Assembly: GCA_938021675.1 (NCBI GenBank)
Contig: CALIFY010000075.1
Coordinates: forward strand, 18,382-82,381
DNA length: 64,000 nucleotides
Reading direction: 5' to 3'
DNA from: an uncultured Acidimicrobiales bacterium
GTDB taxonomy: Bacteria; Actinomycetota; Acidimicrobiia; Acidimicrobiales; SZUA-35
Below the pieces are notes generated by a model, which worked only from the letters and a program-made list of their open reading frames with translations, did no database searches and had not been told where the DNA came from. Numbering within the stretch: the first letter of the stretch is position 1; each line of letters starts with the position of its first letter. The position numbers and the translations under genes were made by a program. This document shows positions 54,245 through 64,000 of this stretch, piece by piece.

Positions 54245-54895
54245 CTAACGAGTACCTCGCGGGGAGAGCCGACCGCTTCCACCGCCCTCAGAGTAAACCT
54301 CGCCCCGCCAGGCCGGTCGCCAGCCTGTTCGCAAAAGCTGCTCCGCCGCCAGGGCGCGGGCCCCAGCCTGTATCAGCGCCAACCCAGCGCGAGAACGAGC
54401 CTCCTCGTCTGCCTTTTTGGCCTTCTCCAATTGTTGCTCCGCTTCAGCTAGTGTCCACTGGAGTCGGGCGAACTCAATCCGAGCGTCCCGAGCCTCGGCC
54501 TGTTTCTCGACCATTGACCGGTTCGCTTGAACCGAGGCTTCGTAGAACGATGGGTCACGGATGGCCAGTTGAGCCAAACGTTCGGCCGTACGTGTCGCGT
54601 CTATCGCTTCGTCGGACGCTTGGGCCAACTCGTGGCGTACCGCCTCGAGTTCTACCGCTTCGAATTCGGCCTTCGCAGCATTGAGAGCGCTCTCAGCGTC
54701 ACTCCGTTTCCCTGCCCAAAAACTGGCGAATTTTGCTTCCGCGACCGCCGAATTGACATGATCGACCGCAGTTTGGATCATCTTTTTGGCGACCTCATCT
54801 GTTGCGTTGTTCACCGATTCAGAAAGCTGATCTACAAACACAGAGAGGGTTGACGCATCGATTCCGCTTTCATCGCTCGCGACTGATGCCGTCAC
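54245..54895 (-). CDS. Giant modular protein, fragment C (third helical module)
   Basis: ASTLSVFVDQLSESV...AVAEAKFASFWAGKRSDAESALNAA parallels VHRLSTFVSSLAAMV...TAEDYAAFANFWTTQRLQAEQIAAA in fragment A. The frame is open upstream to TAA at 55055-55057. Confidence 0.65.
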   Translation of the reverse strand: MTASVASDESGIDASTLSVFVDQLSESVNNATDEVAKKMIQTAVDHVNSAVAEAKFASFWAGKRSDAESALNAAKAEFEAVELEAVRHELAQASDEAIDATRTAERLAQLAIRDPSFYEASVQANRSMVEKQAEARDARIEFARLQWTLAEAEQQLEKAKKADEEARSRAGLALIQAGARALAAEQLLRTGWRPAWRGEVYSEGGGSGRLSPRGTR

Positions 54896-56081
54896 CCACT
54901 CGGTGATCCTCGAACTCAGAGTTGGGTCTACAGAACCCTCGGATACACCGTGAACAGCACCACCGCCGCGACCCGAACTGTCTTCGAATATCGTGACCGC
55001 ATGCCCTGCCCCCCCGTGCCCCTGGCCCCGAGTCCTCGGCGGTGGGGGCCGACTTTATCGCTTCGGTGAGATCGGAGGCGCCCAAGCCTTCCGGCTCAAA
55101 ATCAATAGCGGACGTAGGTGCCTTCACTCGGTTCCATGAGCGGTCGGAATTCACCCGACGTTGGTAAAGGTCAACGGAGGTCGCGCCAGTGGTGAAGAAA
55201 ATGTCTCGGCCAAGTTCTCTCGCAAGGTTCTGAGCTTGAGCGACACCGATCAGCCCTGTGACCAACACAATTGGAGGGTCGGTCCGCGCCGCTTGCGTGA
55301 AGATGTGATTGTCCACGTAATTGGCAACCAGGTCAAGATGGAAAGGATCGACTTTGAGTAGTAAGTGGCCCAGAATTTCTACTCCCCTGAGGCGCTCTAC
55401 CGGGTCCACTTGCATGGGAAAAGAATCGGTCGGGTATCGCAAGAAAGACTCTTCTGGCTTGAAATCAACATCGGACCTTGGCGCTCTAACCCGTTGCCAT
55501 GTATTTCCATAATCCAACCGAGGAAAGCCGTTAAACACATACAGACCTCCTTCGGTAAATACAACATCTCGCTGAGCCTTCCTGGCAATTTCTTGAGCTT
55601 GAATAGCGGTGACACCCGATTGGAACAATACAACCGGCAACCCGTTGGAATCGTTTGAGAAGTTGCGAGAGAGGTAACCTGAAACGCCTTCCAGTGCGGA
55701 CGCTTGGGCCCGAACGACTATCTGGCTGGGAAGTGACATTGCCTCAAACGTTGTTGAGTCGTGCGGCGACCAACCAGCCAACGGTTCAGGGGGACCTGCC
55801 ACGATTTCTGATGTAACCGACTCTGCCGAGACCACATCGGCAGCCTTCAACGAACTCTCTGGCAACGAGAACTTGCGCCACAGGACTGACTTCATCTTGT
55901 GGTCACCAACATGGACTTCGATGCTGCCGATTGGCGCCTCGACCGATGCTCCAAGTCTGGCTACCAGCTGCGCAGCGAGAGGCACACTGCCCACTCCAGC
56001 GTTCTTTTGCATCAACCGAACCGTCTGCCCCGCGTGTACAACCGAACCGTTTGACCCCGCACGTTGCCGGTAGCGTTCCAA
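54870..56081 (-). CDS. Giant modular protein, fragment B (-1 frame relative to fragment A)
   Basis: From GQTVRLMQKNAGVGSVPLAAQLVARLG onward it is colinear with the internal copy GQSVRLFAENTGLGDAPLPKQLLGELG of fragment A. It contains two further copies of the AQxLAREL..RD[IV]xF / WxRVxAPxSxxDF domain. The Cys/Arg/Trp-rich tail after about 55015 looks out of frame. Confidence 0.65.
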   Translation of the reverse strand: MERYRQRAGSNGSVVHAGQTVRLMQKNAGVGSVPLAAQLVARLGASVEAPIGSIEVHVGDHKMKSVLWRKFSLPESSLKAADVVSAESVTSEIVAGPPEPLAGWSPHDSTTFEAMSLPSQIVVRAQASALEGVSGYLSRNFSNDSNGLPVVLFQSGVTAIQAQEIARKAQRDVVFTEGGLYVFNGFPRLDYGNTWQRVRAPRSDVDFKPEESFLRYPTDSFPMQVDPVERLRGVEILGHLLLKVDPFHLDLVANYVDNHIFTQAARTDPPIVLVTGLIGVAQAQNLARELGRDIFFTTGATSVDLYQRRVNSDRSWNRVKAPTSAIDFEPEGLGASDLTEAIKSAPTAEDSGPGARGGRACGHDIRRQFGSRRWCCSRCIRGFCRPNSEFEDHRVGDGISRER

Positions 56082-63757: not shown

Positions 63758-64000
63758 GTGGCCCCCACCTACCTGACCCGCAGACCGACCACCATCCCCC
63801 GGAGGCACCGAACCACCTCGTCCTGTCGAACGATCAGAAGATCCAGGTGGCCGGGCCGCTGCCCCAGCCGGCAGCGAATCTGAATCGGCCCGTCGATTCC
63901 CCGCACGAGCGCCACCAGGCCTCACTGGACGCGCCCCGAAGCGCCGCTGAACGACGACCTCTCGATCGTTTCGATGACCGGTTTCTACCGATGCCCCATC

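Follow-up and report, generated by a model that had tools for sequence, protein, structure and literature searches.

At one end of a 64,000-nucleotide stretch of DNA from an uncultured Acidimicrobiales bacterium (contig CALIFY010000075.1 of assembly GCA_938021675.1; the whole stretch is called the window here, and all positions refer to it) lies a giant, internally repetitive locus, on the minus strand at 54245-63925. What are its modules, and what could such a protein be for? A first-pass annotation, made from the DNA letters without database searches, had described one modular gene of unassigned family and had offered, among its possible roles, a polymorphic-toxin-like scaffold or a decaying gene. 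We find that the alpha/beta module of this locus is a clear but catalytically dead member of a widespread family of His-Cys domains of polymorphic toxins, and that the last repeat unit of the locus is broken by two frameshifts. The explanation that we favour, with modest confidence, is an old non-catalytic scaffold or peptide-binding protein built from toxin architecture, the 3' unit of which is decaying. Both suggestions of the first-pass annotation pointed in the right direction.

Results

One repeated architecture in three open reading frames

Comparison of the locus with itself (self-BLAST) confirmed a colinear, internally repeated architecture over the whole of 54245-63925. It is not carried by one gene, as had been annotated, but by three colinear open reading frames (ORFs) in two frames, whose products continue the same architecture. 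ORF A (56012-63925, minus strand) has 2637 codons from a GTG at 63925. Its likely start is the ATG at 63757, which gives a product of 2581 amino acids, coincides with the start of the first helical module and has a Shine-Dalgarno-like element (GGTGGGGG) just upstream. ORF B (54870-56081, minus; 403 codons, called as 380 amino acids from the ATG at 56012) lies in the -1 frame relative to A. ORF C (54245-54895, minus; 216 codons) is again in the frame of A and contains the third helical module (54320-54862), about 25 codons past which the gene ends. The two frameshifts had been missed, as had the fact that the frame of A contains no stop codon between 63925 and 64000 on the minus strand and is open upstream to the edge of the window. 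The 25 codons at 63926-64000 (minus strand) resemble the linkers of the giant protein; the ORF listing gives the GTG at 63925 as the start.

The longest internal match joined residues 1125-1472 of ORF A (written A1125-1472, and so on) to B18-366, with 36% identity (E = 3e-56). Further matches were found between A1474-1644 and C8-184 (33% identity, E = 5e-15), A967-1095 and A2445-2594 (41% identity, E = 1e-17), A216-362 and A1626-1788 (E = 4e-14, including the linear motif WAVAQTxLPRxPxYLxRVLGR), and A524-608 and A1082-1161 (E = 6e-7). Apart from one 15-nt doublet, no tandem DNA repeats were present in the giant gene. The annotation of the protein as nearly free of cysteine was borne out, with no Cys in ORF A (2581 residues counted from M57) or in ORF C; all five Cys are in the last 45 residues of ORF B, an out-of-frame tail. 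The maximal Kyte-Doolittle mean over 19 residues was 1.5, which leaves no stretch resembling a transmembrane helix, in agreement with the annotation, and no signal peptide was found from M57 onward.

The alpha/beta module and a family of His-Cys toxin domains

Scans of the window ORFs against Pfam, NCBIfam, PHROGs and PADLOC returned noise only and nothing significant, and phmmer found no match to PDB sequences. The alpha/beta copies had no Pfam hit, including to Peptidase_C80 and DUF4347, even below threshold. When the repeat unit was made into a profile and searched exhaustively with HMMER, 76 proteins were retrieved, nearly all of which matched the alpha/beta part only; giant actinobacterial toxins were hit at E = 1e-34. 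The best matches were giant proteins of 2.6-6.6 thousand amino acids from Nocardia, Actinomadura and Catenulispora, the top ones being named by NCBI as WXG100-like/deaminase, ADP-ribosyltransferase or DUF4347 proteins. In these giant actinobacterial toxins, two to six copies of the domain lie between toxin heads such as ADP-ribosyltransferase, RelA/SpoT-like and PI3/4-kinase-like domains. RHS, CdiA and phage MuF toxins carry the same domain, of about 130 amino acids, at their C-terminal tip; it was seen directly after an RHS DPxGL tip and downstream of a phage MuF domain, and it is found in short fragments annotated as 'filamentous hemagglutinin'.

The consensus of the family is FDVxAHG...L..LA..I....Y..GQ.VRLLSC.TG...FAQ.LA..LGV.V.AP....G.W..F.P., and it contains a His-Cys dyad: of 103 domains, 97 have the Cys, and of the 96 in which the His column is occupied, 90 have His. 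The precomputed Pfam field of the family members was empty. Below threshold, 46 of 122 members matched DUF4347 and 33 of 122 matched Peptidase_C80. An AlphaFold model of an active member, P0083, had a predicted local distance difference test score (pLDDT) of 94.5, and its best PDB matches were the cysteine protease domains (CPDs) of the Vibrio cholerae and V. vulnificus MARTX toxins and of TcdB, together with the CHAT protease of a SAVED-CHAT filament and GPI transamidase (CPD entries 3gcd, 3eeb, 3fzy, 3pa8, 3pee and 8yjc). These best matches are all clan CD enzymes but were weak (E from 9e-3 to 1e-1, TM-score 0.4-0.47). The family is related to Peptidase_C80/CPD and to DUF4347. A search of the family profile against PDB sequences gave only spurious matches to Hsp70, which we discarded.

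In their account of caspase-like domains, Zhang et al. (2012; PMC3482391) describe those of polymorphic toxins, with H and C residues, as releasing peptidases and occasionally as toxin tips, and there note repeats without catalytic residues. We infer from shared features that the His-Cys family fits the 'caspase-like releasing peptidase' treated in that account.

Two family members that were checked in their genomic context were orphan toxin cassettes, which lay after a CdiA gene in one case and after an RHS/TNT gene in the other. Both cassettes were followed by an ORF of 120 amino acids (L051:6477-6839 and L053:6841-7203) with an N-terminal CxxC...CxxC and no Pfam hit, and the two ORFs were homologous to each other (27% identity, E = 1e-20). 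An orphan cassette at a CdiA or RHS gene followed by a homologous small ORF is the signature of toxin-immunity pairs, and the 120-aa ORFs are a putative cognate immunity family of the active His-Cys members.

Loss of the dyad in the copies of the window

A hidden Markov model (HMM) of the family, built without window sequences, recognised the alpha/beta copies at the three positions where they had been annotated, and these scores (55-58 bits), together with the HMMER matches to giant toxins, mean that the module can no longer be called unassigned. In copy 1 (62006-62404, minus; A508-640; 55.3 bits), the catalytic His is replaced by Thr and the Cys by Asp. In copy 2 (60380-60796, minus; A1044-1182; 57.9 bits), the replacements are Arg and Glu. 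Copy 3 (55860-56299, minus) is split by the first frameshift into A2543-2629 and B18-74; the HMM matched both halves (A2580-2630 and B17-57), and the dyad positions are occupied by Pro/Glu and Lys. All three copies retain the structural glycines and hydrophobic positions of the family. In an AlphaFold2 model of copy 2 (pLDDT 75.7), strands and helices succeed one another as they do in the model of P0083; on this comparison of element order, copy 2 may have the fold expected of the family, a beta-alpha-beta-alpha-beta core with C-terminal hairpins. When the model of copy 2 was searched against BFVD, the only match was a MuF-type minor capsid protein (E = 8.5e-5).

The pairs of domains of about 110 amino acids, which the first-pass annotation could not place, are also likely to derive from this fold. 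They comprise domains 2a and 2b (59597-60307, minus; A1207-1318 and A1319-1443) and domains 3a and 3b (55083-55784, minus; B100-212 and B213-333). Within each pair, one domain is similar in sequence to the other (A1224-1314 with A1342-1440, E = 5e-8). A profile of the four pair copies was aligned by hhalign with the family alignment, from which window sequences had been excluded, with a probability of 92%, an E value of 6e-7 and a score of 42, over 68 columns, of which the first lie in the second helix and the last in the terminal W..F.P motif. The highest control score was 18.4 in 40 column shuffles, and the reversed profile scored 12.5. The pair domains have no His at the catalytic position, and no homologs of them outside the locus were found in 1.8 billion representatives, GTDB genomes or JGI metagenomes. 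They are best read as diverged, remote copies of the His-Cys fold that lack the dyad, which would bring the predicted pseudo-protease modules of the locus to seven.

Two frameshifts in the last repeat unit

The first frameshift lies halfway through alpha/beta copy 3, where an insertion of 26 nt (GCGGGGCAGACGGTTCGGTTGATGCA; 56008-56033, minus strand) repeats, imperfectly, the 27 nt before it (56034-56060). The insertion produces a TGATG overlap between the stop codon of A and the ATG of B. Removing it in silico restored a continuous frame (...GNVRGQTVRLYTKNAGVGSVPLAAQL...) that matches the other alpha/beta copies. Programmed -1 frameshifting at the A/B junction was considered and rejected, as 56012-56081 contains no slippery heptamer and the junction is the insertion itself. 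The most likely site of the second frameshift is a G7 homopolymer at 55009-55015 (minus), in the linker before helical module 3. Past this run, the frame of B reads as the Cys-rich out-of-frame tail (54873-55007), while the frame of A and C continues as linker.

Could these breaks be errors of sequencing or assembly in one intact gene of about 3,180 codons? A homopolymer such as G7 is a classical site of error, and B and C extend the repeat unit colinearly and without stops. We nevertheless consider this improbable. An independently built assembly, Logan contig L001 of run ERR9287622, covers 51788-57875 and shows both breaks; over its 6,088 bp, it is 99.97% identical to the window, with two substitutions and no gaps. 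With a length of 26 nt, the insertion is not a base-calling error, nor is it an error type of any platform. The length of the G7 run is less certain than the insertion, and the two assemblies may share reads.

Age of the duplications and the extent of decay

The duplicated units are 33-41% identical and have kept fold-defining residues and short linear motifs. At positions where the internal duplicates have identical residues, 49-57% of these residues are encoded by different synonymous codons (33% in the motif block), from which it follows that the duplications are old and that the shared residues have been kept by selection at the protein level. The absence of the dyad from all seven modules is most simply explained by a loss of activity that preceded the duplications and was followed by a long period of non-catalytic function. 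The open frame of 2637 codons is incompatible with long neutral decay, which makes both frameshifts, confined to the last unit, recent.

These points bear directly on a further explanation, in which the locus would be nothing but a pseudogene: a polyvalent or polymorphic toxin gained by horizontal transfer would have decayed, its heads, leader and catalytic residues would be lost already, and no part of it would function today. In favour of this, two independent frameshifts lie in the last unit, one splitting a domain and the other leading into a Cys-rich nonsense tail of 45-58 amino acids; most modules have no homolog, all seven protease-like modules are dead, and the codon usage and the lack of orthologs beside EamA, described below, would agree with it. 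We hold a pure pseudogene to be possible but rather doubtful. A stop-free frame of 2637 codons would not be long-lived under neutrality at 60% GC, where about 2.5% of random codons are stops, and the duplicates are old, with about half of the conserved residues in different codons. Long protein-level selection after loss of the dyad implies that decay is only recent and limited to the 3' end, which is probably turning into a pseudogene.

Several observations nonetheless weigh against an old, functional scaffold. The G+C content at third codon positions (GC3) of the giant gene is 0.56 (0.48-0.63 along its length, with the minimum of 0.48 in the globular middle part), compared to 0.70-0.76 in seven neighbouring genes, which suggests either a foreign (horizontal) origin or weak codon selection. 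The gene downstream, 71 nt from the giant locus, encodes an EamA transporter and shares 70-76% identity with genes from metagenome-assembled genomes (MAGs) of Acidimicrobiales and Acidimicrobiaceae; no relative of the giant gene was present at 49 EamA loci from other genomes, and the most syntenic of them, L003, has genes of normal size at that position. The helical, pair and motif modules had no homolog in any collection searched. Low GC3, absence beside EamA, modules without homologs and two frameshifts would also be expected of a foreign gene in the process of loss. In structure, the active member is connected only weakly to clan CD (Foldseek E values of 9e-3 to 6e-2 and TM-scores of 0.43-0.47 to the CPDs), and the model of copy 2 matched no PDB fold with an E value below 0.1. 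The N-terminus of the giant gene may lie outside the window, and with it further modules or a trafficking domain. Finally, a role of the protein as a scaffold or in binding peptides is inferred.

Helical modules, linear motifs and resemblance to MIM1

The helical modules and linear motifs described by the first-pass annotation were recovered, and they are the part of the locus that stays without a family. The helical module is about 175 amino acids long and occurs in three copies that align with one another at 24-35% identity: module 1 at 63233-63757 (minus; A57-231), module 2 at 58955-59500 (minus; A1476-1657, found by self-BLAST and alignment) and module 3 in ORF C. Two copies of the linear motifs, 48% identical, follow at 62885-63148 (minus; A260-347; RFxAGADTQ ... 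LEARF ... WAVAQTPLPRSPRYLARVLGR) and at 58607-58915 (minus; A1671-1773; including SLEELEARFQALRSE and WAVAQTALPRDPGYLSRVLGR). A motif that precedes the alpha/beta domain was found before copy 2 (60836-61009, minus; A973-1030; EVVGRV...VVRSGAR...FGRR...GAVD) and, by self-BLAST, before copy 3 (56399-56575, minus; A2451-2509). No relative of the helical module or of these motifs was detected in any collection searched, and the pair domains, linear motifs and whole unit had none in GTDB genomes, JGI metagenomes, a set of 5.8 billion proteins, plasmids or phages.

Four ideas about the helical module were tried at the level of sequence and rejected. Neither this module nor the motifs were found in the homologous giant toxins, and comparison with the WXG100-like leaders of those toxins gave an hhalign probability of 0.1%. 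A relation to ESCRT-III or PspA was not supported by PDB sequences, which gave only a keratin coiled coil (E = 0.04) and no ESCRT-III, PspA or Vipp1, and the module profile found no Snf7 or PspA in Pfam at E values up to 10. There was also no match to the 120-aa putative immunity protein of the family.

Four short amphipathic, helical motifs in the disordered linkers, SFLDEVSRRLERLRGG, SLEELEARFQALRSE, DELLRQLTALRMDD and TLEARFWAPQSE, resemble the MIM1 motif of ESCRT-III, (D/E)xxLxxR(L/F)xxL(K/R). The sites are on the minus strand at 61232-61432, where the amphipathic motifs DELLRQLTALRMDD and SFLDEVSRRLERLRGG lie in a disordered linker, at 62960-63005 and at 58670-58715, and two of the four come after a helical core, as in ESCRT-III. 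The strict pattern [LIVM]xxR[LF]xxL[RK], which was picked post hoc, matched twice, with 0.028 matches expected in shuffled sequences. We treat this resemblance as a lead only. The pattern was absent from the approximately 76 homologous proteins that were fetched, giant toxins included.

Two functional proposals draw on these elements. The locus could encode a functional, non-toxic multivalent scaffold, evolved from toxin parts, in which binding between grooves and motifs builds a self-associating network or condensate, or an ESCRT-III-like or ESCRT-mimicking protein acting through its MIM1-like helices, neither of which we regard as likely. Ligands of the grooves would be WAVAQTxLPRxPxYLxRVLGR, EVVGRV..VVRSGAR and LEARFxALR, in the protein's own linkers or in partner proteins, and the candidate peptides for pseudo-domain 2 would be WAVAQTALPRDPGYLSRVLGR, EVVGRV..VVRSGAR and LEELEARFQALRSE. 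It is even less probable that the product is a secreted effector or surface protein using eukaryote-like short linear motifs of the MIM1 kind, or a decoy for incoming toxins that would bind to their processing sites. A very long, disordered, Cys-free protein with modules derived from toxin architecture would suit such a role, as would the four MIM1-like motifs with two strict matches and their absence from the homologous proteins. On the other hand, the motif pattern was chosen after the fact, and PDB sequences and Pfam showed no similarity to ESCRT-III, PspA or Vipp1. The helical module does not resemble WXG100-like leaders, a signal peptide is missing, and no secretion gene occurs among the large ORFs of the 64-kb window (at least 250 amino acids) that were scanned with Pfam; relatives of the neighbouring genes come from environmental MAGs.

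No other part of a toxin system was found inside the window. Searches with Pfam, NCBIfam, PADLOC, PHROGs and PDB found no toxin domain in the window protein, and no trafficking domain (WXG100/LXG, TPS, PAAR, MuF or signal peptide) was found from M57 onward, with the frame open to the window edge. The putative immunity protein of the active members had no match in the window.

Genomic context

The rest of the window encodes ordinary chromosomal metabolism and transport. At 40391-51712, a cluster of salvage type comprises an amidohydrolase, an MtnA-like protein of the IF-2B family, a PNP/MTAP-like phosphorylase and an S-adenosylhomocysteine hydrolase, and it adjoins an operon for a nucleoside ABC transporter of the Bmp/PnrA type, also ordinary. 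This salvage and transport cluster places the giant gene in a core metabolic neighbourhood.

Other features of the window were noted. A repetitive coiled-coil ORF of 930 amino acids (18922-21714, minus) with weak, scattered Pfam hits adjoins an ORF with OmpA/BON domains (21760-22797). Two ORFs, at 23019-24887 (minus, 622 amino acids) and 26717-27913 (plus, 398 amino acids), had no Pfam hit at an E value of 1e-5. ARAGORN called a 95-nt tRNA-Gln(CTG) at 31408-31502 (minus), inside an ORF of the MacB/FtsX type on the opposite strand (30533-31918); the call is probably a false positive, no Rfam tRNA in the window reaching the gathering score. No Rfam families were found in the window, and promoter and terminator scans remained at chance level.

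Discussion

In the scaffold explanation that we favour, the locus would go back to a single ancestral gene of about 3,180 codons, situated in the chromosome of an Acidimicrobiales bacterium and encoding a Cys-free, largely disordered giant protein. Three kinds of element would make it up: seven non-catalytic copies of the His-Cys domain, three helical modules, and linkers rich in Ser, Gly, Arg, Asp and Pro that carry conserved short motifs. The dyad would have been lost before the modules were duplicated, and the protein would then have functioned for long without being an enzyme. The grooves in which the pseudo-protease domains once held their substrate may now serve as peptide-binding sites, the helical modules as units of interaction or oligomerisation, and the linkers could present their motifs for multivalent self-association or for the binding of partners. 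The last repeat unit would have been broken recently by the 26-nt insertion and the homopolymer shift, so that the product is now presumably at most the 2,581-aa A, with B and C fragments if translation restarts at the TGATG overlap.

How does this protein compare with systems already described? It shares with the Tox-Caspase releasing peptidases (PMC3482391) similarity at the profile level and the order of strands and helices. That family forms arrays within giant actinobacterial toxins, and in RHS, CdiA and MuF proteins it makes up the C-terminal tip. In the window protein, by contrast, all copies, three clear and four remote, are without His and Cys; the window contains neither a toxin head or leader nor an RHS/FHA repeat or immunity gene, and helical modules and motifs of orphan status accompany the domains.

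The Peptidase C80 CPDs of MARTX, TcdA and TcdB (PF11713) have the same order of His and Cys, each residue ending one of two successive strands. However, the family domain is about 130 amino acids long and the CPD about 200, and the scores between them are weak (E of at least 9e-3). The family domain presumably also lacks the flap that binds inositol hexakisphosphate (InsP6) in the C80 CPD. The similarity to DUF4347 (PF14252) stayed below the gathering score in all 46 of the 122 family members that showed it, and was seen in none of the window copies; a Catenulispora homolog, P0017, is named 'DUF4347 domain-containing protein' by NCBI. DUF4347 is also carried by PA0256, a putative toxin of the type VI secretion system delivered by Hcp (PMC8262886).

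The giant WXG100-like toxins, such as WP_357332232.1 (6647 amino acids) and WP_192759930.1 (2773 amino acids), resemble the window protein in their very large size, in disordered linkers (rich in Pro, Gly, Ser and Thr in the toxins) and in repeats of the His-Cys domain. Unlike it, as far as the window extends, they have WXG100-like leaders, transmembrane segments and intact dyads. Their heads (ADP-ribosyltransferase, RelA/SpoT-like, PI3/4-kinase-like or deaminase) have no counterpart in the window protein, and its helical module is unrelated to their N-termini.

The globular modules of the locus belong to a toxin-peptidase superfamily that is known but poorly curated, some as dead members and others as remote derivatives, and are not categorically new. 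Most of the globular content of a locus that had no match in curated libraries has thereby received an assignment based on homology. The family itself is a small caspase/CPD-like toxin domain that has no significant Pfam match, although its members in CdiA, RHS, MuF and giant actinobacterial toxins number in the hundreds. The locus would be an extreme case of a pseudo-enzyme, an array of protease modules that lost the dyad before it was duplicated and was then kept for long. Should the scaffold explanation fail, it would still be a well-documented snapshot of a foreign giant gene under loss. If the pseudo-protease modules do bind the motifs of the linkers, the locus would show clearly, in a bacterium, how parts of toxins can be reused to make a multivalent scaffold.

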